Below are positions 20,300 through 57,432 of a DNA stretch of 64,000 bases, piece after piece. Origin of the DNA: a virus. The first letter of the stretch is position 1; every line of letters starts with the position of its first letter. The notes under the pieces were generated by a model. It was not told where the DNA came from and did no database searches. It saw only the letters and a list, made by a program, of their open reading frames with translations. Both the position numbers and the translations under genes were made by a program. The stretch covers positions 39,757 through 103,756 of IMG/VR virus record IMGVR_UViG_3300031999_000005, one strand, 5' to 3'.

Positions 20300-20594
20300 A
20301 GTCGTGCCCCGCATGGGGTGCGTGGAAGAAACCGGGTGGGGAACCCGCCTTCAGGAGTTAACGTAGAGGTTGTAAACTCATGCGTTTCCTGAGAAGCCCT
20401 TTTGGACAGTTCACCACTGCCCATCGGAAGGCCATTCAGCCCCAGCCGATTGGGGAGCAGCGATTAAGAGGCCCGCAGAGCCGGAAGTCGGAGTGAACGC
20501 AGCCGGCGGCGGATGATTCTAACCCTCAAAATCCCTGCCCCTTTGTCGGGGCAAAAGGAGGATGGCCTTCCCGGTGGGAGGGCCAACATACCAA

Positions 20595-22616: not shown

Positions 22617-22726
22617 GGAAGGAAAATCAATTCTCGATTGATGTGGCCGGGCAGTACCTGTTCCTTGGCAACATCGTCGTAACCGCGCCTCGGCTGATGG
22701 CGCAGATAAGTGGAATAACTGGTTGA
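22617..22726 (+). CDS. major capsid protein, exon 2
   Basis: (W)KENQFSIDVAGQYLFLGNIVVTAPRLMAQISGITG-stop, a typical capsid C-terminus. Confidence 0.9.
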
Positions 22727-22756
22727 CATGTATCTGATTCTAAGGGAGTTAGCCAA

Positions 22757-23437
22757 ATGGCAGCTTGCTTAACACTGGGTCAAGCCGGGGTATATAGAGT
22801 GATGGCGGAACTCTTGCTCCGCGGTCACAGGCCGTACATTCCGGCAGTGGACGATCATGGTGTTGATTTGGCTCTTTCCACTGGAGTCAGAATACAGGTC
22901 AAGACGGCTCGTCTCCACACCAGGAAGAATTGGCCGAGAAAGCCAATCTACCATCTGACATTTGGATGGGCACAGATAGGCCGGACGCACATTCCTATCC
23001 GCAGAAAGAAGAATTACAGTTCAGAATGCGATTTTCTCATCATCTACGGTGTTGATGAAAACCGCTTTTGGATTGTTCCTAGCTTCCTGTTGGACGGGAG
23101 AACATGCCTGATGCTTGGACCCCGATGCCGAGTTGTTCGTGGGCAGATAGAGGAACTTCTCGATGTCGGGGTGACGAGAATCGAGGCAGCGAGGAAACTC
23201 GGCGTTGATCGGCATACCATCACAAGGCGGTTGAAGGGCGAGGGAACGAAAAATGGCGGCTTTGTGAGATCAGTCAGAATGTGCGAAGACCAATGGGGAC
23301 TTTTGGGTTCTCCAGTTTTCGCTCCATTCGTGGGGAACCCGCCCAGTCTTCCAGGCGGTGAGACGGCCCAACAGAAAACAAGAGAGGAAACACAATGTCA
23401 GTCGCTGTCACTAACAACAATCTGCCATACCTCCTGA
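22757..23437 (+). CDS. free-standing PD-(D/E)XK endonuclease (I-Ssp6803I-like) with HTH
   Basis: GQAG...AELLLRG...P..D.GVDL....IQVKT; CDFLIIY; IEAARKLGVDRHTITRRL. Confidence 0.8.
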   Translation: MAACLTLGQAGVYRVMAELLLRGHRPYIPAVDDHGVDLALSTGVRIQVKTARLHTRKNWPRKPIYHLTFGWAQIGRTHIPIRRKKNYSSECDFLIIYGVDENRFWIVPSFLLDGRTCLMLGPRCRVVRGQIEELLDVGVTRIEAARKLGVDRHTITRRLKGEGTKNGGFVRSVRMCEDQWGLLGSPVFAPFVGNPPSLPGGETAQQKTREETQCQSLSLTTICHTS

Positions 23438-24715: not shown

Positions 24716-25177
24716 ATGGCTGTAACCATCAATAAAGTCGCGGATGGAGAGTGGTCGCTCGGCAACAAGATTGCCGTGATCGTGGATCTTTCATCAATCA
24801 CCTACGTTGCTGGCGGGGTGCCAATCGCCGCTGGAGACGTGGGTTTGGGCAAGATCCTCGGCGCTCAAATCCTTGGAGGCAGCGCTGAGTCCGCTGTCCT
24901 GAACTGGTTCTGGGACACCACCAACCTCAAACTGATGGCCACCTTCCCTACCGGGGGTGCAACAGTGCCAGTAACACTGATTCCCCCTGTTGCCACTGCA
25001 TCGGCGGTTTCGGGAGCTTGTACCGCTGGCATAGCAACGGCTTCAGCGGTCAATGCTGTCACACCGGCTATTACGGGTACCGCAGCGGCTCAAGTTCTGG
25101 TGGCCGGAGTGAGCAAAGAACCTGGAGCCATTGCCCTCAGCGCTTGCAGGCTGCGGGTAATGTTCATTGGCTACTAA
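24716..25177 (+). CDS. putative head structural protein B1
   Basis: Y..GG.P motif; 153 aa; paralogue of B2. Confidence 0.6.
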   Translation: MAVTINKVADGEWSLGNKIAVIVDLSSITYVAGGVPIAAGDVGLGKILGAQILGGSAESAVLNWFWDTTNLKLMATFPTGGATVPVTLIPPVATASAVSGACTAGIATASAVNAVTPAITGTAAAQVLVAGVSKEPGAIALSACRLRVMFIGY

Positions 25178-25224: not shown

Positions 25225-25686
25225 ATGGCAGTGACTATCACCAAAGTCGCAGATGGCGAGTGGTCTATCGGCAATAAAATCGGCGTGATCGTAGACCTTT
25301 CAGCGATCACCTACGTTTCTAGCGGGGTGCCAATTGCTGCCGGGGATGTGGGTCTGGGAAAGATTCTCGGGGCACAGATTCTCGGAGGCAGCGCTACTGC
25401 TGCGCTCTTAAATTGGTTTTGGGACTCCACCAATCTCAAGTTGATGGCGTTCTTCCCGACTGGAGGCGCGTCAACGCCGGGCACGTTGATTGCTCCTGTG
25501 CTTACTGCATCGTCAGTTACAGGAAATTGTACCGCTGGCGGGCAGACGGCCTCGTCAGTCGATGCTACGACGCCGACCATCGCCGGTACCGCAGTAGCTC
25601 AAGCGCTGGTGGCCGGTGTGGGCAAGGAATCTGGGGCCATCGCCCTCACCAACTGCACGGTGCGGGTGATGTTCATTGGTTACTAA
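25225..25686 (+). CDS. putative head structural protein B2
   Basis: 153 aa, highly similar to B1. Confidence 0.6.
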   Translation: MAVTITKVADGEWSIGNKIGVIVDLSAITYVSSGVPIAAGDVGLGKILGAQILGGSATAALLNWFWDSTNLKLMAFFPTGGASTPGTLIAPVLTASSVTGNCTAGGQTASSVDATTPTIAGTAVAQALVAGVGKESGAIALTNCTVRVMFIGY

Positions 25687-25769: not shown

Positions 25770-27011
25770 ATGGGCGGAATCCTAATCCAGCCGCGTGCTA
25801 CCAGCCCGACCACGGTGCTGACGGCCTACAACGGCACAGGGCCAGCACCGGTGTTGACCTTTACTGGAGCCTACGCCACCACAGTGCTCTTGCAGGTAAC
25901 CACGGGCGGGCTGGGGGACGGTACCGCCAAATTCAAGTGGAAGACGATCACCGGATCGGCCTGGACAACCGGCGTGTCAAGCGCGGTGGGAGTGCTGCTT
26001 GGGACCACCGGCCTGACACTTGATTGGGACCCCGGACAAACCTATATCGTAAATGATGCCTGGAGCATTGTCTGCACGCCGGGAGTGGCCGGGAACGTAG
26101 TCGCGCAATCGACCTTTGCTCAGATGGCTGGCGAGATTCAGCGGTGGAATCCAGAGGTGGACAACCTGCTGGCGAGACGTTGGTTGAACAACGTCTACCG
26201 AAGGATCGTTGACTCGCGGAACTGGTATGGGATGCTGCTCAGGGGGCAATTAACCGTTCCAGCGATCTACACCACGGGCACAGTTGCGGTGACGGTCGGC
26301 TACAACACGGTGACCGGGACAGGGACGGCATGGGATGCCAGTTTCATCGGACGGCAATTCCGCTCTGGCTACACGCAGAGTCCAATCGCAACCATTACTA
26401 ATGTAGCTGATGCAACGCACTTGACGCTGGAGGCGGTGTGGGGTGGGACCTCTTACACTTCGACGGGCTACCAGATTTTCCAGTCAATCGTGAATTTTGG
26501 AGCCAAGGTGAAGTTGCTGACGCAGATGATAAACCTGCGGCAGAACCGGCCCATGGAAGTGAATGTCCCACAGGCGTATCTGGATGCGCGAGATCCCTGG
26601 CGGTCGAGAATCGGTTGGGCAGAGGTGGCGGCCTGCTATCCAGCTTCTGTTGACGGTATCACTCAATGGGAGTTGTGGCCGATCCCGGTTTCGCAGCAGA
26701 CCTTCCCTTACCGGGCTTATGTGCAGCCGCCGGACCTGTCGGCCAATTCCGATGTTCCGTATCCATTCATCCGTTCCGACATCCTTGTCTACGGGGCCAT
26801 CCCGTTCGCATTGCTGCACGGCGGACTCAAGAGCAAGTATTACGACCCGGTGACAGCGAAGATGTTCATGGGGATGTTTGCCGCCGAGATGATGAAGCTG
26901 GAACTGAAGGACAACGACTACTTCCAGAAAGACGGGCAATGGGATTGGAACCGTGGTGCGACAGCGGGGGCGGGGATGTACGCGCAGATGACTGACGTGT
27001 CAGGAGGGTGA
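25770..27011 (+). CDS. head-tail adaptor-like protein with added beta domains
   Basis: TFAQM..EI...RRWLNNVY..I / ELWPIP / DILVYGA adaptor core, with inserted GTVAVT..VTGTGTAW domain. Confidence 0.65.
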   Translation: MGGILIQPRATSPTTVLTAYNGTGPAPVLTFTGAYATTVLLQVTTGGLGDGTAKFKWKTITGSAWTTGVSSAVGVLLGTTGLTLDWDPGQTYIVNDAWSIVCTPGVAGNVVAQSTFAQMAGEIQRWNPEVDNLLARRWLNNVYRRIVDSRNWYGMLLRGQLTVPAIYTTGTVAVTVGYNTVTGTGTAWDASFIGRQFRSGYTQSPIATITNVADATHLTLEAVWGGTSYTSTGYQIFQSIVNFGAKVKLLTQMINLRQNRPMEVNVPQAYLDARDPWRSRIGWAEVAACYPASVDGITQWELWPIPVSQQTFPYRAYVQPPDLSANSDVPYPFIRSDILVYGAIPFALLHGGLKSKYYDPVTAKMFMGMFAAEMMKLELKDNDYFQKDGQWDWNRGATAGAGMYAQMTDVSGG

Positions 27012-28062: not shown

Positions 28063-29376
28063 ATGAAGAAACTGCTGATTCTCTTTGTTCTGCTGTTTGC
28101 CCTGCATGGGCAGGCGCAGAACGTCATTAACGCCGACTGCTCGATCACCCTGACTGTCACGGCGGCAGGGAGTTCCGTTGCTTTCGATAACCGGAGGATC
28201 GCCTGCACGACCTGGCACATGGCCTACATGAGCACCGGGTTTACAGCAGTGTCGATGCAACTGGACTATTCAGCCGATAACGCCGGGGTACCGGCCGCAT
28301 GGACGGTCTGGCCAGCGGCTGATATTGCGGTGGGTGCGCTGCCTCTGACGGTTACGACCGAAACTCAGATCACGGGGTACAAGTACCATCCATGGGTGAG
28401 GATCACGCTCAATTCCAAAACTGGAACAGGCACAGTGCGGGCGCTGGCCTATGGCTACAAGCCGTGGTCAGGTTTTGATTCCAGTTTTGGTGGGGCGGTG
28501 CTGGTTGACTTGGCGAAAATCGGCGGAACAGCAGTCCCGTCCACCACCATCGGGACCGTCGCCGCAGCCGGAGAAAATACCGCGCAGTGGATCAAGACAT
28601 ACTCTGCGGTTGGGGCTATCGACAGTGCCGCCGGGGCAGGATCAAAGTTGGTTCCACTTACCGTGGTTTCTACAGCGAAGCCCAATCTAAAGGCGGATGT
28701 ATCCAGCATGGGCGGGACTGATGTGCCCTCTACCGCAGTGAGCACGGCAACGGGTGCGAAGGCTGAAAACGTGGCGAACTGGATTCATGCCTTGGCTGCG
28801 ATTTCTGGGCAAGATCTAGCTGCTGCTGCGGGTTCGCAGCAGGCCCCGGTTGGGGTTGTGGCACCGAATGCTACCCATGATGAGAGGCTGGTCAACCGTT
28901 TGAAGACGCACGCAATTGTGGCTGCATTGGACACGACGCTGGGAGTGGGTTCGCAAGAAGTCCCGATTAACGCAGTGTCAACCCTGCCCGCTGGGACGGA
29001 AACCGGATTGATTACTCGCAACATTCCCGCTGTTGTTGCCAATTCCTTCGTGGCACAAAACGGTTTAGGCAGCACAGCGGTCTTGAATGCTGCTTGGCTG
29101 GCACCACTGAATCATTCCTTCCAGATCAACGTAACTATCACGGCGAAGACTCTGACGGCTTGCACCTATTCCATTTACGGTTCCCTGGACGGAACAACCT
29201 TCGACACCGCACCATTGGCCGACGCCCAGGACTGTTCAGCGGCGGCGACTAAGGCTGTTCTATTCTCGGTCGTCGGCAAGAGGGTCAAATATGTGAAGGG
29301 GACGATTTCGGCCTGGACGGAGGGTGGCGCGGGTGCGGCTCCGGCAGTCCAACTACTGTACTCGGGGGGGAACTGA
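28063..29376 (+). CDS. signal-peptide-bearing beta-rich virion/fibre protein
   Basis: MKKLLILFVLLFALHGQA-Q; T/A/G/V-rich; 4 Cys. Confidence 0.7.
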   Translation: MKKLLILFVLLFALHGQAQNVINADCSITLTVTAAGSSVAFDNRRIACTTWHMAYMSTGFTAVSMQLDYSADNAGVPAAWTVWPAADIAVGALPLTVTTETQITGYKYHPWVRITLNSKTGTGTVRALAYGYKPWSGFDSSFGGAVLVDLAKIGGTAVPSTTIGTVAAAGENTAQWIKTYSAVGAIDSAAGAGSKLVPLTVVSTAKPNLKADVSSMGGTDVPSTAVSTATGAKAENVANWIHALAAISGQDLAAAAGSQQAPVGVVAPNATHDERLVNRLKTHAIVAALDTTLGVGSQEVPINAVSTLPAGTETGLITRNIPAVVANSFVAQNGLGSTAVLNAAWLAPLNHSFQINVTITAKTLTACTYSIYGSLDGTTFDTAPLADAQDCSAAATKAVLFSVVGKRVKYVKGTISAWTEGGAGAAPAVQLLYSGGN

Positions 29377-32171
29377 TGAAACGGTTACTGATTCTCGCAC
29401 TTCTTGTTGGCATGGGGGCGCTGGCCCAAGAACCTACGCCGGTCTATAACGGCCCGATAGTGATTCGTGGCGGGACGACCCCCCTGACTGTCATCAAGAA
29501 CTCGGATTTCCGTGGGACGCATACCCAGACCGGGAACGTTGTGATTACCCCATTGGCGGCCCCAGGAGCGCCTACAGTGACCCCGACGCCGGGTGGTGGG
29601 GCTACGACCTGGGGTTATAAGGTGGTGGCCTGCCTGGACGCGCTTTGTACGGCGCACACCACGGCGAGCGTTGAAACTGACGATGTAACTGGTGGTGCGG
29701 ACTTGCTTGCGGACGGCAGCGTGAAGGAAACAGTTTCCTGGGCAGCCGTTACTGGGGCGCTGTTCTACAATCTGCGCCGGATTGCTTGGGGCGGGACATG
29801 TCGCGGAATCGCCTGCGTTGGTGGGTCAATCGGAATTACCACGCTTACCAACTTTGAAGACACCGGCCAAGTCGGAGATGCGACAACCACACCGCTCACG
29901 AACACGACTGGGACGTTGACGCTTCCCGCCATGACTGCGGGGTCTGTTCCGTTCTTCGGTGCGGGTGGCTTACTTTCGGAAGCTAATAGCAACTTTTACT
30001 GGGACAGCACGAATAAGCAACTGCAAATCACCGCGAATCCTTCCAGTACAAACACCATCCTTGACGTTCTGAAATTGACGCGGAGTACCACCGGCACCGC
30101 CGGCAACGGCATCGGTACCGGCCTTGTCCTGTACGCCGAAGACGCCAGCGGGAATATCGAGGAGGCGGGGAGGTTTCAGGCCAGCTTCCCGAATGCTACG
30201 CACGCTACGCAAACCGGTCGCGTGGATATTACCGCAATGGGTGCGGCGGCGGGCGTTAGCGTGCAGTCGGATGGCCAGGTGGCGGTTCGACCATCAGGGG
30301 CGGCTTTAGCTCGTCTGCACGTCGAGCCTGCGGCGGGGTTGCAAGGGGCGATTATCAACGAGAATGGCGCGGCGTTAGCGACAGGGGGACTCATTGGCGG
30401 TTCTCCAGCCCTGCTTACTCTGGAAGCGGGGTCCGCAAGTCCGTACTACCAACTTGGATATATCATTGATGGAGTTGGAAGCATCGCTAACTATCAAGTC
30501 CTCGACGGGAACTATCTTCAGTTCGACCACTCTAACTCCGCCGGATCGCCAACAGGAAGCAATTGGCTCGACAGCTATGGGGGTCATGGATACCAAAGTT
30601 ATACCAGTGATTCCTGGACCTTATACCGGCGCACGGATACCTACAGCGGCCTCGGCAAGTGGACGGACGGTACGGTCTCGACGAACAACCCGTTACCGCT
30701 TATCAACGTCTTCGACGCCGGTACGGTTCGCATCTCCTCGCCGTCCACGCTTGGCGGCGAATCGCTGAACGAGACGGCGTTCACCACCCACGCCAAGTGG
30801 GATACCACCGGAGACTTCAACGATACCGCAGGCAATGCCAAGTATACCCACAATACCGGCGTGGGGACGTTGACTCAGACCGCAGTAAATATGCTTGCAG
30901 CCGGGGCCGCTAATCGCTTCTATCGCTTCCCCTACCTAATATCCGGCTTGTCCGGCGACGTGGCCTGCTCAATTACTACGACGTTCGCAGCGGAAGCAAC
31001 GCCATTGAACCTGACCGCAGGCGCACAGACCACTGACTTCTTGTCTGCCGCTGCGCCAGGGAGCTTCGTCATTTCTTGTACCTCAACCGTTGCCGGCGGC
31101 GTGACGCTGGACGATGTGAGCTTGAAGCCGGTCGCTGGCGGTGACTTGATCGTTGATGGCAAGGTCGGCATCGGGACGGCGGCGCCAGCCGAGAAACATC
31201 ATGTCTACAACGGCAATTCTCGTATCGACTACGGGCACTTGAGGTTCATCTCCGAGGCCACGCCGGGAGCGCCAACCTCGAATGCTCCTACCGCTGGCGG
31301 TTCATGTACGGCAGGTACGCACGTCTTCGTAACGACCTTCGTGACTGCGAATGGCGAGACGCAATACGGAGCAGCCAGCGCCGCACAGACTTGCGGAGCG
31401 AATGCTACTGTGCCGTTGAGTGCCATTCCTACTGGCACTTCTGGCGTGACCACGGGCCGGAACATCTGCGCGTCGAAAGCCGGAACCACCACGCCGTTAT
31501 ACCAAGTCGGTGCATCGCCCACGATTGCGGATAACAGCACCACCACTTACAATTTTGTCACCGCAGACGGTTCGCTGACCGTGGCGTGCAATGCGACGGA
31601 CACCACTACCGGCGGGATTTGGGTGGATGGGACGCAGAAGGTATGGATTGATTCGGCAACGGGTTTTCTCGGCATTGGCGGCGCTCCGTATGCGGGATAT
31701 ACTACTGTACTTACCCCGTTGTACGTGAGTTCAATTTCCTATTTAGGGGGTGCCGTCTCGCTGGGAGGGGGCATCGGAACCTATAAGGCCATCGCCACCG
31801 TCTCCAACGGCATCCCCGCAATCTACGGCACGGTGGACCTGACCGCGCAGACCTCTGCAATCGGCGCAACCACGATTTACGCGAACCCTGCAACCACGGG
31901 CCAGTACCGCGTCTGTTACCTTGCGCTCACCAAGAAGGCCGGGGATGCGGTGAACCTGGCTGTGCAACTCTCGTTCACCACTCCTGACGACAGCAGCACA
32001 GCGCAGAGTATCGCCAGCGCGAACGTAGCGATCAACACGGTTGGCGCGTACACGCAGGGGTGCCCTACTATCGTTGCCAAAGCATCCACCAATATCCAAT
32101 ATGCAACGACGTTAAGCGGAGGCATCGGCGCTGGCGAGTACAGTTTGTGGATCAAGGTGGAGAAATTGTAA
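29376..32171 (+). CDS. signal-peptide-bearing tail fibre-like protein
   Basis: MKRLLILALLVGMGALA-Q; fibre motifs GSVPFFGAGG.L...NSNFYWD and GKVGIGTAAP; 12 Cys. Confidence 0.75.
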   Translation: MKRLLILALLVGMGALAQEPTPVYNGPIVIRGGTTPLTVIKNSDFRGTHTQTGNVVITPLAAPGAPTVTPTPGGGATTWGYKVVACLDALCTAHTTASVETDDVTGGADLLADGSVKETVSWAAVTGALFYNLRRIAWGGTCRGIACVGGSIGITTLTNFEDTGQVGDATTTPLTNTTGTLTLPAMTAGSVPFFGAGGLLSEANSNFYWDSTNKQLQITANPSSTNTILDVLKLTRSTTGTAGNGIGTGLVLYAEDASGNIEEAGRFQASFPNATHATQTGRVDITAMGAAAGVSVQSDGQVAVRPSGAALARLHVEPAAGLQGAIINENGAALATGGLIGGSPALLTLEAGSASPYYQLGYIIDGVGSIANYQVLDGNYLQFDHSNSAGSPTGSNWLDSYGGHGYQSYTSDSWTLYRRTDTYSGLGKWTDGTVSTNNPLPLINVFDAGTVRISSPSTLGGESLNETAFTTHAKWDTTGDFNDTAGNAKYTHNTGVGTLTQTAVNMLAAGAANRFYRFPYLISGLSGDVACSITTTFAAEATPLNLTAGAQTTDFLSAAAPGSFVISCTSTVAGGVTLDDVSLKPVAGGDLIVDGKVGIGTAAPAEKHHVYNGNSRIDYGHLRFISEATPGAPTSNAPTAGGSCTAGTHVFVTTFVTANGETQYGAASAAQTCGANATVPLSAIPTGTSGVTTGRNICASKAGTTTPLYQVGASPTIADNSTTTYNFVTADGSLTVACNATDTTTGGIWVDGTQKVWIDSATGFLGIGGAPYAGYTTVLTPLYVSSISYLGGAVSLGGGIGTYKAIATVSNGIPAIYGTVDLTAQTSAIGATTIYANPATTGQYRVCYLALTKKAGDAVNLAVQLSFTTPDDSSTAQSIASANVAINTVGAYTQGCPTIVAKASTNIQYATTLSGGIGAGEYSLWIKVEKL

Positions 32172-32184
32172 CAAGGAGGACGGC

Positions 32185-32565
32185 ATGAATAGGCTCTTGA
32201 AAGTTCTTATCGTCAGTGCCTTGGCGGTAGGCATTGCGGTCGCGCAGGATGCACCGCCGGTCTACACGTCTTTCCTGACAGGCGTGACGCTGACCAGCGT
32301 GCAGGCACAGTCAGTGGCGACGTTGGCCCAAACCCGTGACTCCGCCATTGCTTCGGCACAAACGCAGTCGGACGGAGCACTGGCTGAACTCAACATTCTG
32401 CTGGATGCCGCCGATCCTGACCTTGCCCGTATCGGGACGTTATCCCGACGGGTGCGGACGCTGGCTGCGCAGCAGAAACAGGCGTACACGCAGTTCCGGC
32501 GCGACGTGTGGCAACTGCTAACTCCAGCGCAGCGGGACGTACTACTGGCGCGATTGGGGTTTTAG
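32185..32565 (+). CDS. secreted Spy/CpxP-like (LTxxQ) helical protein
   Basis: Signal AVA-Q; LTSVQ and LLTPAQR motifs flanking a helical hairpin with DPDLARI. Confidence 0.7.
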   Translation: MNRLLKVLIVSALAVGIAVAQDAPPVYTSFLTGVTLTSVQAQSVATLAQTRDSAIASAQTQSDGALAELNILLDAADPDLARIGTLSRRVRTLAAQQKQAYTQFRRDVWQLLTPAQRDVLLARLGF

Positions 32566-32613
32566 ACCAGACCACGGCGCAGGTCGCCGTGATTGAGAAC
32601 ATATAAGGGTTTC

Positions 32614-33291
32614 ATGCTTCGCGTATTGACAATCTTCGTGCTTTTGTTCCTTGCAGGATGCGGCGGCAATCCACCAGTGGTCGTGATACCGCCAGTACCA
32701 CCGCCAGTGGTCGTGCCGGAGCCACCGCCGATTGTCGTTCCTGAGCCGCTGCCGATTGTCGCCCCACAACCCCCTCCGATGCCGGAGATACCCGATTGGA
32801 TTCTGGCGGACTATCCCGATGCTCGGCAGGTCTGGTTCGGAACGACTGCGGTGATGTACGTGAGCGGCGGATTCGCCCTGGACGACGTGCGGAAATACGT
32901 CAACACAGCATTGGCCGACACGCAGAAACTTCGGCCAGCGGCGAAATTGGAGGGCATGTTCGTCGTCAAGGAAATGCCGAACGATTGCCCGCGCAGTTCC
33001 GGGCCGGCCTTCTTCGCGGATGGCGTGATGGATTCTCGCGAAGTAGTTGGAATGCGCCAGTGGTATCCTCAGTCGTTTGTGAACAATCGGCCATGTGTCC
33101 ACGGCTATTTCGGGAGTCGCACGATTCCTCCGGTCATTTACGTGCCGACTGGTTTGCCCGAAGTCATCGAGCATGAGGTACTGCACGGTATCTGGTGGAG
33201 CAACTGGGTAGGCGAGAAGTGTGGAGGGGATTTCGTATGGGCTGTGGTTGAACATGGCGGGGCATGTGACCCGTTTTCGGGAGAGAAATGA
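32614..33291 (+). CDS. lipoprotein with Pro-rich linker and HExxH zinc-peptidase motif
   Basis: Lipobox LAGC; PPVVV repeats; IEHEVLHG. Confidence 0.7.
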   Translation: MLRVLTIFVLLFLAGCGGNPPVVVIPPVPPPVVVPEPPPIVVPEPLPIVAPQPPPMPEIPDWILADYPDARQVWFGTTAVMYVSGGFALDDVRKYVNTALADTQKLRPAAKLEGMFVVKEMPNDCPRSSGPAFFADGVMDSREVVGMRQWYPQSFVNNRPCVHGYFGSRTIPPVIYVPTGLPEVIEHEVLHGIWWSNWVGEKCGGDFVWAVVEHGGACDPFSGEK

Positions 33292-33956
33292 CCGTTTCAG
33301 ACCTAACCGATGAAGTTCTTCAAGCCCTTGAGGAAGACCCCGCCGCCCCTATTTTCTGGAATCTAGTGGATGAGGTACGTCCAGCGGTGGTAGAGGCTGC
33401 ACGGTGGGCCACGATTATCACTGGTGAACCGGAGTTGCGGGTTGCGCCAGCCTTCCCTCTGGCTGCCGACACCATGTTGTTCACCGTTCCCTCTTCTCTG
33501 ATTGCTCTGATTCGCGTGGAAAGCACCTCCGTAGTGCCCAAAAGCAGCCCATGGAAACTGGACCGGATGATCCCCGGCTGGCAGAACGAAATAGGGGATG
33601 ACCTGAAGGCTTGGTTCCCAGTGGGTCTAACGAAGTTCGGGATTTATCCGCGGCTGAATAACGCGATTGATGTGGCTCTCACGGGAATCGCTCTGCCGGT
33701 CACGACAGGGCGCCCGTACACAGGTTTTGAACCGTTGCCTTTCCAGGTGGAATACAGTCATGCCTTGCAACGCATGGGGGTTCACCTACTGCGGGTCAAG
33801 GAGAGTGGCCTGGAGTTTTACCAGAGCCTTGACGACCTGGATTCATTCCTGGATGCGATGGTAGACTTGGGCCGGTTCTCGTACCGGAAAGACAAGTTGC
33901 GATTCACGTCCGCATTTGGACCCAAGGCGGAAGTAAAACCGGTGGAGGCTCGCTAA
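33288..33956 (+). CDS. head-completion/adaptor-like protein
   Basis: MTVSDL...FW....EV...KLDRMIPGW...FGIYP pattern of podovirus adaptor-like proteins. Confidence 0.55.
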   Translation: MTVSDLTDEVLQALEEDPAAPIFWNLVDEVRPAVVEAARWATIITGEPELRVAPAFPLAADTMLFTVPSSLIALIRVESTSVVPKSSPWKLDRMIPGWQNEIGDDLKAWFPVGLTKFGIYPRLNNAIDVALTGIALPVTTGRPYTGFEPLPFQVEYSHALQRMGVHLLRVKESGLEFYQSLDDLDSFLDAMVDLGRFSYRKDKLRFTSAFGPKAEVKPVEAR

Positions 33957-34846
33957 TGAATGCCCGAGAGGTCCTTGAAGATTGCTCCTACATTCTGTTG
34001 CAGCCAATCGTGTCCACCATGCTGGTTGGGGCAGTGGCTGGAGCCGGCGTAGTTTCAGTGGCATTGGATTCGGCTGATTCTATCTACATTGGAGCGCAGT
34101 TGGTGGTGGATGTCGATGGGGCTAATGAAGAGGTGGTCACAGTGACGAATCTGTCGGGAACCACGATCACGGCGACCTTCCTTTATGCCCATGCCGCTGG
34201 GGTAACTGTGCGGGCGCCGACATTCCCCAAGGGGCAGATCACCCACCCTCTGTTTACCCAAGATGAGTTGCTCGGATATCTTCAGGATTCACAGAATGAA
34301 TTTCTGGCCGCAGTTGAGCCGGTGGTCTACATCCTTCCGTTGACTATCGGGCCGGCGGCATTTATCTACGATCAACCAGCCAACGTGATTGACGTGAAGC
34401 GGATTGAAGCGCGGGGTCAGGGGGTTGATGAAGAGAGCCAATCGCTACTGGACATGGACAACCCGCAGTGGATGTATGATACGCCCAGCGACCCGCCGGA
34501 CCATTGGTTCCGTGACCGGATGGATGTGAAGAAGATTGGGTTCCATCCGCTTCCAGCAAACACCGTGTCGGCCGGCATATGGGCTTCGTTATCCTATCCG
34601 ACCGCGCTGGCGCTGAACACCGTCCTGCTGGTCCCCGAACCCTTCTGCCATATCCTGAAATACGAGGTTCTGTCACACGTGTTCAAAAAGGACGGGGAAC
34701 AGAAAGACCCGATGCGAGCGAAGTATTGTAGCCGGATGTTCCGGGTGGGGATCATCGCTTCGCTGAAATTCATCATCGGGACGGGCCTACGGCAATTGGG
34801 CGAGTCTACGGAACTGCATCAGGGTATAGGGAGGTTCACATCATGA
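33956..34846 (+). CDS. adaptor-like protein with inserted beta domain
   Basis: FTQDELLGYL...LLDMDNPQW...P..F.H.L.Y core. Confidence 0.55.
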   Translation: MNAREVLEDCSYILLQPIVSTMLVGAVAGAGVVSVALDSADSIYIGAQLVVDVDGANEEVVTVTNLSGTTITATFLYAHAAGVTVRAPTFPKGQITHPLFTQDELLGYLQDSQNEFLAAVEPVVYILPLTIGPAAFIYDQPANVIDVKRIEARGQGVDEESQSLLDMDNPQWMYDTPSDPPDHWFRDRMDVKKIGFHPLPANTVSAGIWASLSYPTALALNTVLLVPEPFCHILKYEVLSHVFKKDGEQKDPMRAKYCSRMFRVGIIASLKFIIGTGLRQLGESTELHQGIGRFTS

Positions 34847-37800
34847 GGCGATTGTTCTGGATGTTTGCGTTGCTGCTTCTGCTTCCTCAACTCATTGAGG
34901 CGCGGAGCAGATTCCAAAGTTTCTGCGAAACTGGCGGAGTTTCTGTCACTGTTCCAGGGACCCTTGGCAGTGGCACACAAAAATTCCAACGTTCGTATCC
35001 CTCCTGCACCGTGGCTGTCTATTTAGCCAGTTCTCATACACTCGCGGCGATTTACTCCGATGATGTCGGCACCAGCAAGGCGAACCCTTTCACCGCTGCC
35101 TCTAATGGTCAGTGGTTCTTCTACGCCAATGATGGGCGATACACGGTGGAACTCACTGGTGGAGGCATCAGTGGCACCGTTACATTGGCGGACATCCCGC
35201 TGTTTGATCTCATGGGTGGTGTAAGTAGCACCGTTTTCCTCAACGGGGGGAATGCCTTCGGTTCAACTTTCGCTACCCTGGGGACCACAAACAACAAGGA
35301 CTTGGCAATCATTACCAATGGTGTAGAGCGTGCCAGGGTGCTTGGAAGCGGGACCTATAAAGTTGAGACCGACCTGATGGTTTCCGGTTATTCCGCTTTT
35401 TGCGGAAGCGCTTTATACGATACCGTTGCTACCGGGTACGTTGGAATTATCTGTGACAAAACGTGGATAAATACCGATAACGAGGTACGAGGCATCCATG
35501 CCACTGTTCGCAATAAGCGGACTATTGCCGATGCCGCATGGGACTTCTTTGCTATCGGCGGGGCTGCTGAGGTTGCTACGGGGAATACTCAGCACATTAC
35601 TGGGCAAATGAAAGGAGTAGTAGCAGAGCTTTATTTTCAGCCAGGGGTTTACACTGTAGACAAGGCTGTCGGGCTTCAGTCGAACATCCCTACGCTGGGC
35701 GCGGGAGTCACGGTAACTGATTGGTACGGCTTGGCAGTCAATGCTCCGCCTGCCGGGGGGACAATTACGAATGGTCGAGGAATATGGATTGAGAACTTGA
35801 ACGCCAACGGGAACCCCCCCACGAATTCATACGCCATTCAAATCGACGGGATAGGCAACTACGGCAGGATTAAGTGGCAACATGCGACTATCCAGGAATC
35901 TCCCACCAACTACCTGGAATTGAACGCTACCACTGCTATTGTAACCGTCCCAGGACTGATTGTCGGTGCTGGAGGAAGCCAAGGAGTAAATGCCGGTAGT
36001 TATGCGATTGGCGGGACCACGATTATTGACGGGAGCGGAAACGTTTCAACCACCGGCTATGGGAACTTCTCATATCTCCAAGTGGCGAACGTAGGTGCCC
36101 CTGGAACCCCTGCCGGAGGATACATCAGACTGTATGCCAAGTCCGATGCAACCGACCCCGTAGGCTCCAAACTGCTTTACTACAAGGACTCAGGCAGCAA
36201 CGAATACGTGATCTGCAATACGGGGACCTGTGCTGGGGGAGGCGGGGGCACGATTAGCGGTACTGGAACTGCCACATATATCCCCAAGTTCACCGCAGCC
36301 ACAGTCATTGCAAACTCTATTCTTACGGACAACGGCGCAGGGGCGATGGTCCTTACCGGCACCAATCACTTTGACAGCGCAGGCGGGTATTACGTGGCGG
36401 GGGTGCAAGTCATAGACAGTTCCAAGAGTATTGGGAATGTGGTCAACATGAGCGCTTCGGGGTATATGGTGGCAACGGGGCGCACTGCCGGCTCATATCT
36501 TACGCTGACCAACGCAACAGCCCCCGGTGCGCCCGGAACTGGATACACCCACGTCTACATTAAGGCAGATGGCACTGACCCGTTAGGATCGAAGAAACTC
36601 TATTACAAGGACTCGGCAGCTAATGAATATGCACTGTACCCTGCCGTAATTGGAGGGATCACCGGCAGCGGTACTACGGGAACGGTTCCCAAGTTTACCG
36701 GAGCTTCGGCAATCGGCGATTCCATTCTGACTGATAACGGCGCAGGGGCGATGGTCCTTACCGGCACCAATCACTTTGACAGCGCAGGCGGCTACTATGT
36801 GGCGACAACCCAAGTTATAGACGGTTCCAGAAGCATTGGGAACGTAGTCAACGTGATTGCAAGCGGGTATATGACCGCCGTGGGGCGTGTTGCTGGTGCC
36901 TACCTAACTTTGGCTGACGGGGCGGCTCCCGGTTCCCCTGGCGCGGGTTACGTTCACCTCTACCCCAAAGTGGGTGAGGTGGGAGTGAAGAATTTATACT
37001 ATAAGGACTCAGGGGGGACCGAGTATACAGTCTGCAACACGGTTACTTGCCCCGGAGGAGGCGGAGGGATTAGCGGTAGTGGCACCACGAACACGATTAC
37101 CAAGTTTACGGGCGCTACCGCTGTCGGCAATTCCATTATGACGGAGGCAGGCGGGAGTGCGATAGTCCTGACAGGAGCTAATCACTTCGATTCCGCCGGA
37201 GGGTATTACGTTGCGGGAACCCAAGTCATTGACGGTAGCAGGAATATCGGCAATGTGGTGAACATCTCCAATTCCGGCAGTGTCAGCGCCACAGGAAACA
37301 TCAACACCTCTACGGGATTTCGCATCAACGCTGCCGCACCTGTTCGTCACTACTTGGTAGGAAATGGCAGTTACTATGTGGACGGAACCATACAGGTTGG
37401 TGACATTCCTAGCCATGCCCATGCCGGCACGGACATCACCAGTGGTACAGTTGGTACAGCATATCTCCCGGTAGCAGGAACGGGGGTAGCTGGCATCGTC
37501 TCTGCCGCTGGCTCACAGTATTTTAGTGGCACTAAGTATTTCAACGCTGTGCTTACGGCTCTTGGTGGAATCAGCGCACCAAGCCAAGGCGTCTCGGCTG
37601 GCAGTTTTGCCATCGGTGCCACCACAATTATAGACGCTGCAACAAACGTTAGTACGACCGGCATCGGGAACTTCGGGTCAATCCAAGTGTTGTCCGGAAC
37701 TGTTGTGACGGCAAATCGTGGAATTATCCATCGTTACTTTGCGTCTGCGGGGTTCCCAACTCTTGATACAAATGAGGTTGCTATCTGGTACAAGACCAGT

Positions 37801-37878
37801 GGTGGAGGGGGTATTTGGCTGGTTAGCAACGTGGCTGGTGCTGCTAACTACGGTGTCCTGATGACGCTGAATCCGTAA
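34843..37878 (+). CDS. signal-peptide-bearing tail spike/fibre with particle-binding N-domain and 3 internal repeats
   Basis: MRRLFWMFALLLLLPQLIEA-R; LAAIYSD...ANPFTA..NG..FFYA.DGRY particle-binding motif; GSGT...PKFT.A..IG.SI repeats; 8 Cys. Confidence 0.8.
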   Translation: MRRLFWMFALLLLLPQLIEARSRFQSFCETGGVSVTVPGTLGSGTQKFQRSYPSCTVAVYLASSHTLAAIYSDDVGTSKANPFTAASNGQWFFYANDGRYTVELTGGGISGTVTLADIPLFDLMGGVSSTVFLNGGNAFGSTFATLGTTNNKDLAIITNGVERARVLGSGTYKVETDLMVSGYSAFCGSALYDTVATGYVGIICDKTWINTDNEVRGIHATVRNKRTIADAAWDFFAIGGAAEVATGNTQHITGQMKGVVAELYFQPGVYTVDKAVGLQSNIPTLGAGVTVTDWYGLAVNAPPAGGTITNGRGIWIENLNANGNPPTNSYAIQIDGIGNYGRIKWQHATIQESPTNYLELNATTAIVTVPGLIVGAGGSQGVNAGSYAIGGTTIIDGSGNVSTTGYGNFSYLQVANVGAPGTPAGGYIRLYAKSDATDPVGSKLLYYKDSGSNEYVICNTGTCAGGGGGTISGTGTATYIPKFTAATVIANSILTDNGAGAMVLTGTNHFDSAGGYYVAGVQVIDSSKSIGNVVNMSASGYMVATGRTAGSYLTLTNATAPGAPGTGYTHVYIKADGTDPLGSKKLYYKDSAANEYALYPAVIGGITGSGTTGTVPKFTGASAIGDSILTDNGAGAMVLTGTNHFDSAGGYYVATTQVIDGSRSIGNVVNVIASGYMTAVGRVAGAYLTLADGAAPGSPGAGYVHLYPKVGEVGVKNLYYKDSGGTEYTVCNTVTCPGGGGGISGSGTTNTITKFTGATAVGNSIMTEAGGSAIVLTGANHFDSAGGYYVAGTQVIDGSRNIGNVVNISNSGSVSATGNINTSTGFRINAAAPVRHYLVGNGSYYVDGTIQVGDIPSHAHAGTDITSGTVGTAYLPVAGTGVAGIVSAAGSQYFSGTKYFNAVLTALGGISAPSQGVSAGSFAIGATTIIDAATNVSTTGIGNFGSIQVLSGTVVTANRGIIHRYFASAGFPTLDTNEVAIWYKTSGGGGIWLVSNVAGAANYGVLMTLNP
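36331..36791 (+). repeat. 56-nt exact direct repeat (36331-36386 = 36736-36791) within 3x ~135-aa repeat
   Basis: AACGGCGCAGGGGCGATGGTCCTTACCGGCACCAATCACTTTGACAGCGCAGGCGG occurs twice. Confidence 0.9.
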
Positions 37879-37884
37879 GGAGGT

Positions 37885-38109
37885 TTGATGAAGCTCACGC
37901 TCGTATTGATGCTTGCTATGGTTCTCGGTCCCTTGGCACCCTGCGCGGATAAACCAGACCCATTGGTCTTGGCTAAGATTGAACTGCTGCGCCAAGAGCA
38001 GGGGGAGATAGAGAACAGGATTCTCAAAGCGCATGGAGCAGAAGGCGGTTGGATTGATGTGCAGACAAAGCGGGTCATCCCCCCGCTCCCGAAACCCAAG
38101 GAGAAGTGA
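37885..38109 (+). CDS. small secreted coiled-coil protein (possible fibre chaperone)
   Basis: Signal peptide; TAAGGAGG RBS; directly after the spike gene; paralogue of 3236..3634. Confidence 0.65.
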   Translation: MMKLTLVLMLAMVLGPLAPCADKPDPLVLAKIELLRQEQGEIENRILKAHGAEGGWIDVQTKRVIPPLPKPKEK

Positions 38110-41100
38110 TTGGCCGAATTCAAGACACAACCGATACTGTTCCACAACAAGGGCCTGCTGGCCCGTGTAGCTGTAGACCAAGCTCCGCCCGATACTTACC
38201 TGAATCTGCTGAACATCGAATCACGAGAAGAGAACGCCCTAGCATCCAGATTTGGACGTTCGGTCATCACCAAGAACACCACAAGCCATCAGAATCTTCC
38301 ACTCTATTCAGCCGGCCTAGCGCCGCTTCCTGTGTTGTCCATGCACCGGATGGTTTACCAGACCAGCAAATACCGGTATGCTGCAACGAGCCGTCGCCTT
38401 TACAGGAGTACAAAGATTGATGACACGTCGGGAGCCTATACCCCGATCAACGGGCACAAATCCGGTGTGGTTAATGTTGATGCTACTGGAAAGATTGTGA
38501 CTTGGGTATCGGGGGACACATTCAGCACCGCATGGGTCGGGATGCTGATATGGATTACGGGGGGCTATTATCAGGTAGCGCACGTTGTCAGCGCGACCAC
38601 ATTGTACTTGGCCGGTGGCCCCGCAGGTCCCCTAACCGGAGCAACCTACGATTTGGACGAAATGGGGATCTACGGGAACCCGACATTTTCCGCGAATTTC
38701 AGACCGGATATGTCGTCGGCACCGTACATCTTCTTTGCTGATTGGTACCAGATGCTGAAGGACACCGGTGCCCTGGCATCGACGCAGCGATGGGGCATCT
38801 TTGCGCCAACGCGCCCAGTAACCACGCAGTTAACTTCTCCTGCGGCCACGATCATTGAGGACTTTGACTTTCTTGGGGACTTGGCGATTACCGGAGTCAT
38901 CACTCCAGCGATCGTAGCGAAAATACCGGCAGCGGCGCAACTCAATCCCGCAGGAGCGGCGATATCGGCTGGACAAATATCCACGGTGACACCCACGGCT
39001 GGTGCGATGGTGGCAATTCAACCGGGAGCACTAATTAGGGTCGATGCGACCCTTGGAACCCAAGAGGATATTCTCGTTATTTCCACCACATCCTCGACCT
39101 TCACGGCCTACTTCTACTATACGCATGTGGCGACATCGACAATCGACGAAACAGAAGTCATGGGAGGTATCCCGGCTGGCACCACCGGGACGATTACCAG
39201 GGCAGTGATTACTCCAGTGATTGATCTCGGCCAGATGCGTTACCCGCCATTTCCATCTGGAACGATTGCTTCTGCCGGGGGGGATGATCGGCTTCACTTC
39301 CACTTGCAGGGCATTGTCTCATCGGGGATAGTGATTACCGCAGAGGCTGCTGCTGATCCCGCTGGGTTCACTTCGGTTGCACACGGCTTGGTGGACGGGA
39401 ACACCATCGAAATCAGCAACTATACAGGTTTGTGGTTGCCAGCCAATGGAGTCTGGACGGTCACGGTGACTGGTCCAGATACGTTCACGGTGCCGTTGGA
39501 TGCTTCTGGTTTTGGAGCGTCAGCGGACACTCCAACATGGGCCATTGTCTCTGCCAGTGCGGCAGGAGCCATTTCAAAGATCGAGATTTCCATGGATGTG
39601 GGCGACGGTTCTTTCACCGAGGACTTCTACATCAAGACCATCGACAATCCTGAATCAACGATGGTCGAAATTCAATTCAAGGACTTTGTGGCCCACGGTC
39701 TAGCAGGGGAAGTTGGGCATACATTTTGGAATGTACTCTGCTGGCGAATTGCCATTACGGCGGCGGTGCCCTGCACGATTTACCTGAGCGAATTCTATGA
39801 ACACGGTGGGACCGGCCTAGATACGACCGGCGGCGTGAAGTACGACTACCGGGTCACGTACTACGACAACAACACCGGAGCGGAATCTTCACCTTCGGTG
39901 GTGATGGCCACAGATAGTTGGCTTGATCCTCGGCGCCAGCCGGTGTTGCTCAGTTGGGTGCCCAGCCCTGATTCGCAGGTAACTCATGCACGTCCATACC
40001 GCCGTGGCGGAGTGCTCTCATCCGACTGGTACAAACTCGCGGATGTGCCGATTGGCACGAACGTGTATGAAGACAGACTTTCGGATGCCTCGATTGCGCT
40101 GAATAAACTCCTGGAAATCGACAACGATCCGCCAATCAGTTCGCTGATACCGGTTCCTGTCAACCGAGTATTGGGCGGAGCAGTGGTGGCCGGCGCGATG
40201 GCTTCGGTGGTGCCTGGTGCGGACCCAGGTGTTATGACCGGTATCTATCCGAACCAGTACCTGGACGTGGACACAGGAGATTCTTACGAATCGGTGATTG
40301 TGGAATCGACCCGGCTAACCGGCGTGGTAAACACTGTGGCTCCCGCAACCGTCGATTGGGTGAGCGGGCAAACATTCAGCACCACCTGGATCGGGAAAAC
40401 CATCAAGATCAACAACGTGAACTACGAGGTGCTCGGCGTTGCTTCCTCCATACAGTTGACCCTGACCTCCAATCCGGGAAACCAATCAGCAGTGTGGTAC
40501 GGGGTCGACTGCATCTATGCCTATTTCCAGAAGGCACACGCAGCCACGGCTATGATCTTTGCTTCGGTACGAACCGGAAAGCCGGCGGCGCTGTGTGCAT
40601 CGGCCTACGGTCGGATGTGGGTGGCCGGAGACCTGGACAATCCGCACATCCTTTATTACTCGAAACGCAATCGGCCAGAATCATTCCCTCCGCAGAACAC
40701 GCTGGAGATCGGGAACCCCTCAGATCCGATTATGGCAGTGATCGAACATCGAGGGGTTCTGCTGGTGGCCACCAAGAGCACTTGGTACTATGTCTCCTCG
40801 CCAGCCAATGCCGTTCCTTACTACACCTCAACCGGATGCCGGCATGGGTTGCTGACGTACTATGGATGGACAAAAACTGAGGCGGACATCTGGTACAAGT
40901 CCCATGGGGGAATCTACGTATTCCGCGGGATGGATGCGACCTACGTGAGCGAACCGGTGGAATGGGTGTTTCGCGGGAAGGCTCTTGGGCCAGTCGTCCC
41001 AATGGATCAAACGCAAGAACAGTCCGTTCGGATGGCGTACCACAACAACGAGGTTTACTGCTCTTATGTTGGGACGGATGGTTACGTCTACCGATTGATT

Positions 41101-42165
41101 TCCCACCTCATCTACCAGCGCGGTAGAAACGACCAGAACTCCGACACACCCAATTGCGTAACCTCGATGTTCCTGGAGGAAGACACAAACACTCTGCTGC
41201 TGGGAATGTCGAACGGGATGATTGTCGCAGATCGGCAAGCGATGGACTACGACGACGGAGGCTATGCGGTCGGTGGGGCCGCAGTGCAACTTCCGATTGG
41301 CCTGAATTTGCAAACGCCATACCGGGATCAGGGTGAGCCGGAAAAGGAGAAACTTTACGAGCAAGTGACGCTCGATCTAAACACCCGTGGGCAAGACGTG
41401 ACTGTGGTTGCCCTGTTCAACAACGGAGAAGTGGGTGCCATCACGGCCGCTACGAATGCCACGGCCGCCCAGATGACAAGAGCTAATCACGGCCTGTCAA
41501 CCGGGGCTATAGTGGTAATTTCTGGTTTTGCTGGAGGCTGGACGACGGCCAATACATCATGGCCCGTTACCGTGGATGGGCCGGATACCTTCACGATCCC
41601 ATTGGACAGCACAGCATTTGGAGCATTGGCTGGAACCCCGGTTTACACCTTGACTATAACCCTGGGGATCGTGAGCACGCTCACGCGGCAGCAGGTGAAG
41701 CTCGACATCAATTCGGGCCTGGGCCAGCTTGCCAGAAACATATCAGTGCGACTGACGGCATCGGTGACGCAGGTGGTGGACTTCTACGGCTTTTACGTGA
41801 AGGCTTCCCTGGACACTGAATGGCGCCTGTCCTTTGACACCTATTGGACCGACTTTGGGATGCCGGGCTGGAAATTCGCAAAGCAGGGGTGGTTTGAATA
41901 CGTCTCGAATGCCACAATCACTTTCTATGTCTACCTGGAGGGAAGCGGCACGCCGACGTACACATTCGACCTGCCATCTAGCGGTGGCCTTCGAGCGGCA
42001 TTCCGAAAGCGGCTTCCGCCGGTCGAAGGCAAACTGTGGCGGTTCTTGGCCCTTTCGAGCGCCAATTTCAAGTTGTATCCAGGCAGCTTTATCGAAATGA
42101 AGCCAGTCTGTGCGGCAGATCAAAAAGGATACACACAATTTCCGTTGGAGGCGTTGTCGCAATAG
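38110..42165 (+). CDS. tail nozzle/stabilisation protein (P22 gp10/T7 gp12-like) with multiple inserted beta domains
   Basis: N-terminal GL...D..P...LLNI; propeller-like GRMWVAG...ILYYS..PESFP; two E1-FCCH-like inserts (HGL..G..I.IS...GPDTFT.PLD). Confidence 0.7.
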   Translation: MAEFKTQPILFHNKGLLARVAVDQAPPDTYLNLLNIESREENALASRFGRSVITKNTTSHQNLPLYSAGLAPLPVLSMHRMVYQTSKYRYAATSRRLYRSTKIDDTSGAYTPINGHKSGVVNVDATGKIVTWVSGDTFSTAWVGMLIWITGGYYQVAHVVSATTLYLAGGPAGPLTGATYDLDEMGIYGNPTFSANFRPDMSSAPYIFFADWYQMLKDTGALASTQRWGIFAPTRPVTTQLTSPAATIIEDFDFLGDLAITGVITPAIVAKIPAAAQLNPAGAAISAGQISTVTPTAGAMVAIQPGALIRVDATLGTQEDILVISTTSSTFTAYFYYTHVATSTIDETEVMGGIPAGTTGTITRAVITPVIDLGQMRYPPFPSGTIASAGGDDRLHFHLQGIVSSGIVITAEAAADPAGFTSVAHGLVDGNTIEISNYTGLWLPANGVWTVTVTGPDTFTVPLDASGFGASADTPTWAIVSASAAGAISKIEISMDVGDGSFTEDFYIKTIDNPESTMVEIQFKDFVAHGLAGEVGHTFWNVLCWRIAITAAVPCTIYLSEFYEHGGTGLDTTGGVKYDYRVTYYDNNTGAESSPSVVMATDSWLDPRRQPVLLSWVPSPDSQVTHARPYRRGGVLSSDWYKLADVPIGTNVYEDRLSDASIALNKLLEIDNDPPISSLIPVPVNRVLGGAVVAGAMASVVPGADPGVMTGIYPNQYLDVDTGDSYESVIVESTRLTGVVNTVAPATVDWVSGQTFSTTWIGKTIKINNVNYEVLGVASSIQLTLTSNPGNQSAVWYGVDCIYAYFQKAHAATAMIFASVRTGKPAALCASAYGRMWVAGDLDNPHILYYSKRNRPESFPPQNTLEIGNPSDPIMAVIEHRGVLLVATKSTWYYVSSPANAVPYYTSTGCRHGLLTYYGWTKTEADIWYKSHGGIYVFRGMDATYVSEPVEWVFRGKALGPVVPMDQTQEQSVRMAYHNNEVYCSYVGTDGYVYRLISHLIYQRGRNDQNSDTPNCVTSMFLEEDTNTLLLGMSNGMIVADRQAMDYDDGGYAVGGAAVQLPIGLNLQTPYRDQGEPEKEKLYEQVTLDLNTRGQDVTVVALFNNGEVGAITAATNATAAQMTRANHGLSTGAIVVISGFAGGWTTANTSWPVTVDGPDTFTIPLDSTAFGALAGTPVYTLTITLGIVSTLTRQQVKLDINSGLGQLARNISVRLTASVTQVVDFYGFYVKASLDTEWRLSFDTYWTDFGMPGWKFAKQGWFEYVSNATITFYVYLEGSGTPTYTFDLPSSGGLRAAFRKRLPPVEGKLWRFLALSSANFKLYPGSFIEMKPVCAADQKGYTQFPLEALSQ

Positions 42166-43521: not shown

Positions 43522-44094
43522 ATGGCAACAGCAGTAATTGAACCGGAGACGAAGACAGACTGGCCATACCAGTCGGAGACCACTGCTCTGATTCCAAGAA
43601 TCGAGGGGCAGCACGATGACCTCTTGATTCAGGCATACCTCCAGGCGAAGGCAGAGGGTCTCTTGCCCTGGGTATTCCCAGAGGGCGGAGGAGCGATAAC
43701 CGCCGGCGGATTCATGACCGAGATGCACGGGAAACCCATGGTCTTGGCCTTCAGCAAGGCCACAGGCGAACTGATGGGCATTGGGTGGCTATGGGATGTC
43801 AGATGGACGGCGGAAACGAACAAGAAGGCATCCTGCGCGTACTTCTATTTCCGAAAGTGGTGGGGGAAGCCGGAGATCAGGGAAGCCAGCCGGTTTGCCA
43901 TCCGCTGGTGGTTCTACGGACTCGGGGTGACCGTTCTATTCGGGCCGTTGCTGGCAGCAAACCATCGGGCGGTGAAGTTTGCGGAATCTCTGGGGGCCAA
44001 GAAAGTGGCTGATATTCCGCAGTTCTTCTGTAACAATAAGGGCGGGCTGGACGATGCAGTCGTGACAATGTTGGTGCGGGGCGGAGAGAGGTGA
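43522..44094 (+). CDS. GNAT N-acetyltransferase-like protein preceding the ejection genes
   Basis: FRKWWGK...N.RAVKFAESLG GNAT motif; position as in podoviruses. Confidence 0.7.
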   Translation: MATAVIEPETKTDWPYQSETTALIPRIEGQHDDLLIQAYLQAKAEGLLPWVFPEGGGAITAGGFMTEMHGKPMVLAFSKATGELMGIGWLWDVRWTAETNKKASCAYFYFRKWWGKPEIREASRFAIRWWFYGLGVTVLFGPLLAANHRAVKFAESLGAKKVADIPQFFCNNKGGLDDAVVTMLVRGGER

Positions 44095-57401: not shown

Positions 57402-57420
57402 ACATCCAAATTTGGATGTT
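57401..57420. promoter_or_regulatory. perfect 20-bp palindrome AACATCCAAATTTGGATGTT
   Basis: Same motif family; abuts the giant gene stop and the next RBS. Confidence 0.75.
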
Positions 57421-57432
57421 GGGAGGAAGATC

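Follow-up and report, generated by a model that had tools for sequence, protein, structure and literature searches.

We examined a 64-kb window of viral DNA, the last 64 kb of the 103.7-kilobase (kb) linear IMG/VR virus record IMGVR_UViG_3300031999_000005, whose completeness is estimated at 88%. The virion genes of the window lie on the + strand throughout, and their source is an uncultured short-tailed soil phage of the portal–adaptor–nozzle kind without a close cultured relative; it probably infects a diderm soil bacterium, for instance an acidobacterium. Within the virion module we focused on eight consecutive genes at 28063-38109. This block encodes two fibre-like proteins (A and B), a tailspike or fibre (E) and three smaller proteins (C, D and F), and most of its members begin with what look like export signals (Table 1).

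A Sec or lipoprotein signal was found on six of the eight genes, four of them flagged by our own rule-based scorer, which was used rather than SignalP, and two (D and F) added by hand. Leaders are enriched in this block: in the rest of the 103.7-kb record the scorer flagged 8 of 132 open reading frames (ORFs), and these calls were mostly weak or fell on the non-coding strand. The N-termini of A, B, C and E combine a Lys/Arg n-region with an uncharged hydrophobic core of 11–16 residues and small residues at -3/-1. The leader of D ends in the lipobox LAGC, after which comes a proline-rich linker, and F has a hydrophobic leader ending in LAPC, which is less typical for signal peptidase I. All six starts are preceded, 5–9 nucleotides upstream, by a GGAGG-like Shine–Dalgarno sequence. 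Portal, capsid, the three adaptor-like proteins and the nozzle show no such leader. An earlier reading made by a model from the letters of the window (the sequence-only reading) had reported signals on the three fibre- or spike-like genes and their absence from capsid, portal, adaptors and nozzle; the scorer, together with inspection of the start sites, bears out the signals, and their absence from the other virion proteins holds as well. That reading had also described C as a secreted LTxxQ protein (here with two such motifs), D as a lipoprotein with HExxH (here HEVLH) and a further secreted protein at 37885. All three descriptions stand, the last with its ATG placed at 37888. A, B, C, D and E, and probably F, are very likely to be exported.

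Table 1. Genes of the exported block and its neighbours in the tail module (positions are those of the window; aa, amino acids)
Gene product	Position	Strand	Length (aa)	Features
Adaptor-like protein 1	25770..27011	+	413	Pfam SU10_adaptor E 2.4e-08; no signal
A, predicted exported fibre-like protein	28063..29376	+	437	Sec signal, N-terminal beta domain, internal repeats, C-terminal domain, two Cys pairs
B, predicted exported mosaic tail-fibre protein	29376..32171	+	931	Sec signal, six Cys pairs
C, predicted secreted Spy/CpxP/ZraP-like protein	32185..32565	+	126	Signal, two LTxxQ (LTSVQ, LTPAQ), mature part ~105 aa
D, predicted lipoprotein	32614..33291	+	225	Lipobox LAGC, Pro-rich linker, zincin-like domain with HEVLH
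Adaptor-like protein 2	33288..33956	+	222	Pfam SU10_adaptor E 2.2e-04, under cut-off; phrog_399; no signal
Adaptor-like protein 3	33956..34846	+	296	Pfam SU10_adaptor E 4.8e-08; no signal
E, predicted exported tailspike or fibre	34843..37878	+	1011	Sec signal; N-terminal beta-sandwich 21-125 (Cys28/Cys55); repeat-rich body with two CxxxxC
F, small, probably secreted orphan	37888..38109	+	73	Leader, predicted helix, Pro/Lys-rich tail
Nozzle-like protein	38110..42165	+	1351	Homologue 3' of the spike gene in most relatives; no signal

The cysteines of the three large proteins all fall in neighbouring pairs, with 4 in A (26/48 and 367/391), 12 in B (86/91, 142/147, 531/568, 644/673, 698/738 and 847/896) and 8 in E (28/55, 187/204, 458/463 and 731/736). 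Counted here in whole proteins, these totals match those given earlier, and the CxxxxC motifs quoted with them (CLDALC, CRGIAC, CNTGTC and CNTVTC) are present.

Conservation of the signals in homologues, a check proposed by the sequence-only reading, was then assessed. Leaders are kept in relatives of A, B and E despite complete divergence of the leader sequence, and the n-h-c architecture with small residues at -3/-1 is retained across ~70 diverged leaders. In C, too, the leader is conserved while its sequence drifts. We also considered an all-or-none rule, under which the whole module of a phage is either exported or not; it was not borne out.

The E family, defined by the N-domain of E (residues 21–125, ~100 aa), comprises 47 database proteins and is found on 41 viral contigs, mostly of 55–73 kb and with conserved gene order, in which E-family genes lie between adaptor-like and nozzle genes. 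Among 185,579 species genomes the N-domain matched only three short contigs of metagenome-assembled genomes (Gemmatimonadota, Ignavibacteriales and Thermoanaerobaculia; narrower alignment), so this is not a common chromosomal family. In many relatives, for example those represented by contigs L011, L013 and L040, no spike or fibre candidate other than a leader-bearing E-family protein is encoded between adaptor and nozzle, and leaderless orthologues hold the same gene position.

Of the block's proteins, E thus offers the most stringent test of the leaders. A leader directly precedes the N-domain in ~70 distinct members and is lacking in ~10. Both N-domain cysteines were present in 57 of 69 leader-bearing members and in 0 of 10 leaderless ones (Fisher 4.5e-07, ignoring relatedness). 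In leaderless members the initial Met lies at most a few residues from where cleavage is predicted, and Val or Ala usually replace the two cysteines. The simplest reading of this sequence pattern is that the Cys pair would form a disulfide needing an oxidising compartment, to which the leader would deliver the protein. The C-terminal parts of the family vary and include tailspike-enzyme types, namely pectate-lyase-like beta-helices (PF12708), Beta_helix (PF13229) and K1-lyase_C, a C-terminal domain known from a K1 capsule lyase, the body of E itself being a repeat fibre without a recognised beta-helix. A conserved N-domain joined to a variable body is the classic layout of a virion receptor-binding protein.

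The predicted structure of the N-domain may point in the same direction. The model has a predicted local distance difference test score (pLDDT) >90 over most of residues 21–120, and its best solved matches are chains from cyanopodophage tail complexes, Pan3 (Z 9.0, root-mean-square deviation (rmsd) 2.3, 80 residues aligned) and Pam1 (Z 8.3). The head-binding domains of the P22 and Sf6 tailspikes match at Z 7.2–7.8 (rmsd 2.2–3.1, 79–90 aligned). Against the predicted viral structures of BFVD the N-domain gave 30 matches at E <=0.001 (best 8.5e-08), and nearly all the named ones are phage spikes or fibres; a search of PDB sequences with the E-family profile gave nothing useful. In P22 gp9 and Sf6 gp14 a beta-sandwich at the N-terminus binds the particle and a variable body binds the receptor, a layout that E probably shares, but they carry no signal peptide, fold in the cytoplasm, have no conserved disulfide and share only 6–7% identity with it. 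Directly upstream of the spike gene, three related contigs encode a 163-aa lipoprotein with the lipobox LASC (L022:7501-7992, L023:7501-7992 and L025:7483-7974).

Relatives of A, at 45–96% identity, all have a leader, of differing sequence. A matched no Pfam or PHROG family, and its fibre-like nature rests on its repeats and position only. B has a module in common with P0010, a fibre ending in a Peptidase_S74 chaperone domain, and closer relatives of B carry leaders in front of unrelated N-terminal domains. A low-GC (guanine and cytosine) 44.7-kb phage contig (L003:4161-6606) encodes two consecutive leader-bearing proteins, one of them 50% identical to residues 444–600 of B, which indicates that the B module crosses very different phages. 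Searches with B and E found no match in cultured phages (tblastn) and nothing useful among PDB sequences (phmmer).

Directly 3' of B lies C, and this linkage recurs. In four phage contexts, including contigs L004, L005 and L006, C or a homologue comes immediately after a B-type fibre gene, and the pairing holds even where the fibres share only some modules. Against Pfam, C matched LTXXQ (PF07813) at E 0.0041 (18.3 bits, with a gathering cut-off of 24.3) and Metal_resist at E 0.0062, both under the cut-off, and a search of the whole record for LTXXQ at E <=0.1 gave no match. The L, T and Q of both LTxxQ motifs are invariant in four C homologues. Its nearest ESM Atlas clusters are named Spy/CpxP or LTXXQ (scores 0.89–0.90, 177–186 shared features), and its best PDB sequence match, a weak one, is ZraP (3lay, E 0.033). 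These three weak signals suggest one family, so that C is probably Spy/CpxP/ZraP-like. Compared with Spy, CpxP and ZraP themselves, C is phage-encoded, scores under the Pfam cut-off and is tied to a fibre gene. Lambda Tfa and T4 gp38/gp57A are encoded by small chaperone genes directly 3' of a fibre gene and move with the distal fibre part; C shares their gene position, whereas they are cytoplasmic and unrelated to it in sequence. Most likely, C would serve the B-type fibre as a folding helper.

D belongs to a small family, with 27 representatives among 1.8 billion proteins. In an alignment of 16 of its sequences, H187, E188, H191, C203, H214 and C218 are invariant, making H214 a candidate third metal ligand, and most of the 16 carry a lipobox-like motif that includes a Cys. 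D had no Pfam match. Its model (pLDDT 89) retrieved weak Foldseek matches (E 0.075–0.3), including LTA4 hydrolase, collagenases and lugdulysin, almost all of which are HExxH metallopeptidases. This is consistent with the prediction that D is a membrane-anchored zincin-like enzyme.

F matched no Pfam or PHROG family and has no detectable relatives. Elsewhere in the clade we noted a family of small secreted proteins of ~100–120 aa that combine a leader with a helical part and a Pro-rich tail (L021:10396-10734, L023:11402-11740, L033:7603-7935, L016:11725-12081, L019:13743-14114 and L030:14669-14968); its members lie mostly directly before or after a spike gene and are homologous to one another, with no detectable homology to F. 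We also considered whether D and F could be spanins and rejected this identity. The sole match of D, to phrog_456 (E 0.012), covers the leader alone and D has a globular enzyme-like domain, F has no canonical lipobox, and neither gene adjoins recognisable lysis genes.

With an E-family member as query, we matched two cultured phages, Tunturi 1 and 2 (PP887698 and PP885685). These are 63-kb podoviruses of Tunturiibacter (Acidobacteriota) with clear plaques and without an annotated integrase (PMC11924767), and they share the clade markers of the window phage, namely homologues of its capsid, adaptor-1 and nozzle. Tunturi_2 gp12 has a leader and an E-type N-domain with both cysteines (hidden Markov model E 1e-27). 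Leaders and many cysteines are also found in gp13 ('tail fiber'), gp14 ('pectin lyase'), gp16 and gp17 (1280 aa, 34 Cys), so that all of the large fibre- or spike-like Tunturi_2 proteins examined (gp12, gp13, gp14 and gp17) carry a leader, and the nozzle homologue gp32 has none. Signal peptides and virion proteomics are both absent from the paper describing these phages (PMC11924767). A more distant case is Cellulophaga phage phi10:1 (KC821618), a siphovirus of Bacteroidota whose gp091–gp094 have classical leaders and are annotated in the record as structural by tandem mass spectrometry of virions. Their sequences are unrelated to A, B and E and contain few cysteines; by this annotation, leader-bearing late proteins can reach the purified particles of at least one cultured phage.

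On this evidence we propose an assembly route to which we would give an even chance of being right as a whole: a receptor-binding module whose fibres and spike are exported by Sec, fold in the periplasm and dock at lysis. Fibres A and B and spike E would be made with cleavable Sec signals and pass through the inner membrane in an unfolded state. Folding, oligomerisation and disulfide formation would follow in the periplasm. C would act there as a folding helper for the B-type fibre, and D would be a membrane-anchored zincin-like enzyme. Head, adaptors and nozzle would meanwhile assemble in the cytoplasm, and the exported parts would complete the particle at lysis, once cytoplasm and periplasm become continuous through holin lesions. 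In P22-type phages the spikes are added last, in a step separable from the rest of assembly; docking at lysis would be that step moved to another compartment. We prefer docking at lysis because E has an anchor-like N-domain of the kind found in podovirus tailspikes, because many relatives have no spike candidate besides an E-type protein, because leaderless orthologues hold the same position, and because the P22-type addition is last and separable. An exported, fibre-like fold has a parallel in the mosaic fibre adhesins of Bdellovibrio, phage-fibre-like trimers that are exported and folded outside the cytoplasm; these are chromosomal predator genes with no virion module. The sequence-only reading had likewise proposed that the phage exports its receptor-binding proteins together with its own helpers. 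Conserved signals, the Cys pair that covaries with them, the fibre or spike type of the proteins, the Spy/CpxP/ZraP-like character of C and the zincin-like character of D favour that proposal, whereas the docking and the roles of the helpers are steps that we infer.

Several points weigh against this route. Leader cleavage, disulfide formation and the presence of A, B and E in the particle of this phage are predictions. The Cys pair is missing in a dozen leader-bearing E-family members, and A and B have no conserved anchor domain, the N-termini of B-type proteins being variable. In an unbiased structure search Pam1 was the sole match to the N-domain at Z >=8, with generic beta-sandwiches, a common fold, at 6.5–7.4; because these score nearly as high, the solved-structure evidence is suggestive only. 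The 1351-aa nozzle could itself be the receptor binder, which would make the exported proteins dispensable for infectivity, and docking after the compartments merge must compete with dilution. Finally, our search of the literature for signal peptides on tail fibres, tailspikes or receptor-binding proteins turned up neither proteins of this sort nor a periplasmic assembly step.

The size of the nozzle, with its inserted barrel domains, also lends weight to a different explanation, in which the exported proteins never join the particle. Acting instead within the infected cell's envelope, by enzymatic cleavage or by binding, they would remove or cover receptors, capsule or slime, thereby blocking superinfection, keeping progeny from sticking to debris or easing release, and the nozzle or an unrecognised part would recognise the host. 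The signal by itself places the proteins in the envelope, many E-family members have polysaccharide-cleaving domains, and the lack of a conserved anchor in A and B fits; exported non-virion genes are, moreover, known in tail-fibre regions, as with lambda lom and T5 llp. This explanation nevertheless leaves phages such as those of L011, L013 and L040, and likewise Tunturi_2, with an E-family protein as sole spike or fibre candidate, and it does not account for a conserved N-domain and variable body laid out as in virion receptor-binding proteins, for leaderless orthologues in the same position or for the leader-bearing proteins detected in phi10:1 virions according to its record. We regard a purely envelope-bound role as less likely than docking at lysis, to which it is the main rival.

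Two further explanations fare worse. The hydrophobic N-termini might not serve export at all, the proteins folding in the cytoplasm and assembling conventionally while the leader has another role or none. Textbook tailed-phage assembly is indeed cytoplasmic, and the leaderless E-family members imply that the domain can work without a leader. Set against this are the n-h-c architecture kept across ~70 diverged leaders, the restriction of the N-domain Cys pair to leader-bearing forms, the canonical lipobox conserved in the D family and the presence of C, a periplasmic-type chaperone-like gene, in the same block, and we hold the absence of export to be very unlikely. Least probable of the explanations weighed here is lysogenic conversion, with the genes as cargo encoding adhesins or exclusion factors that a lysogen would display; the sequence-only reading had offered such display as its alternative. 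Signals on adhesin-like fibre bodies would suit such a role, and an integrase could be missing from a record that is 88% complete. Yet a search of the record for a tyrosine integrase (PF00589), the one recombinase type covered, gave no match, and the genes share the orientation of the virion genes, among which they are tightly packed with overlapping stops and starts. Tunturi 1 and 2, which have the same layout, form clear plaques and lack an annotated integrase, further weakening this alternative.

The other virion genes include an SU10/P22-type portal gene at 16198 and the major capsid protein gene at 20562, whose product is distant kin of the capsid proteins of Mx8 and Stenotrophomonas phage BUCT555. 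Homologues of adaptor-1 are found on most of contigs L011–L051 and as Tunturi_2 gp11, clade-wide and upstream of the spike gene. The stop of adaptor-like protein 3 overlaps the start of E (ATGA), and a ~445-aa homologue of this adaptor adjoins the spike gene in many relatives. In the nozzle-like protein, Pfam recognised inserted E1_FCCH-like barrels only. Directly 3' of the capsid gene (21519-23437) are two homing-endonuclease-like genes, with a LAGLIDADG match (Pfam E 5.3e-09) and a PD-(D/E)XK domain plus helix-turn-helix. Between capsid and adaptor genes, tandem 153-aa paralogues (24716-25177 and 25225-25686) are 78% identical and have two cysteines each at the same positions; relatives have one homologue, which may be a head decoration. 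The tail module also contains a GNAT acetyltransferase gene (43522-44094, Pfam E 2.3e-08), and in Tunturi_2 an acetyltransferase gene, gp35, likewise lies near the nozzle gene. A 3502-aa protein in the position of an ejection protein (46893-57401) has a strawberry-notch-type helicase core (AAA_34, Helicase_C_4) at residues 2155–2551 and only 2 Cys. Membrane-protein-like ORFs lie at 5915-6583 and 57412-57729. Family searches of the whole record found no lysozyme, amidase_2 or DsbA family member, and a Pfam search with the ORF at 9738-10163 gave no match.

To our knowledge, every textbook pathway of tailed-phage assembly builds the whole particle in the cytoplasm. We file A, B and E as ordinary fibre or spike proteins with an undescribed maturation route. 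What is new here is that leader and Cys pair go together across a large family, that leaderless forms start where cleavage is predicted, that a Spy-like gene accompanies a fibre gene and that the module can be tied to cultured phages of Acidobacteria. More tentatively than for this one phage, these observations may reflect a periplasmic branch of tailed-phage morphogenesis that is shared by a large group of soil podoviruses and apparently extends to further lineages, and in which Sec-exported, disulfide-bonded spikes and fibres would mature with phage-encoded periplasmic factors and be mounted only at lysis. Because Tunturi 1 and 2 are in culture, the question of periplasmic maturation is directly testable. 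If the proposal is true, assembly, lysis timing and host range would be coupled in a new way, and disulfide-stabilised spikes would explain robustness in soil. Recombinant depolymerases of this kind would need periplasmic expression, and annotation pipelines in which a signal is reason to discard a protein as non-structural would overlook the proteins with which such phages recognise their hosts.

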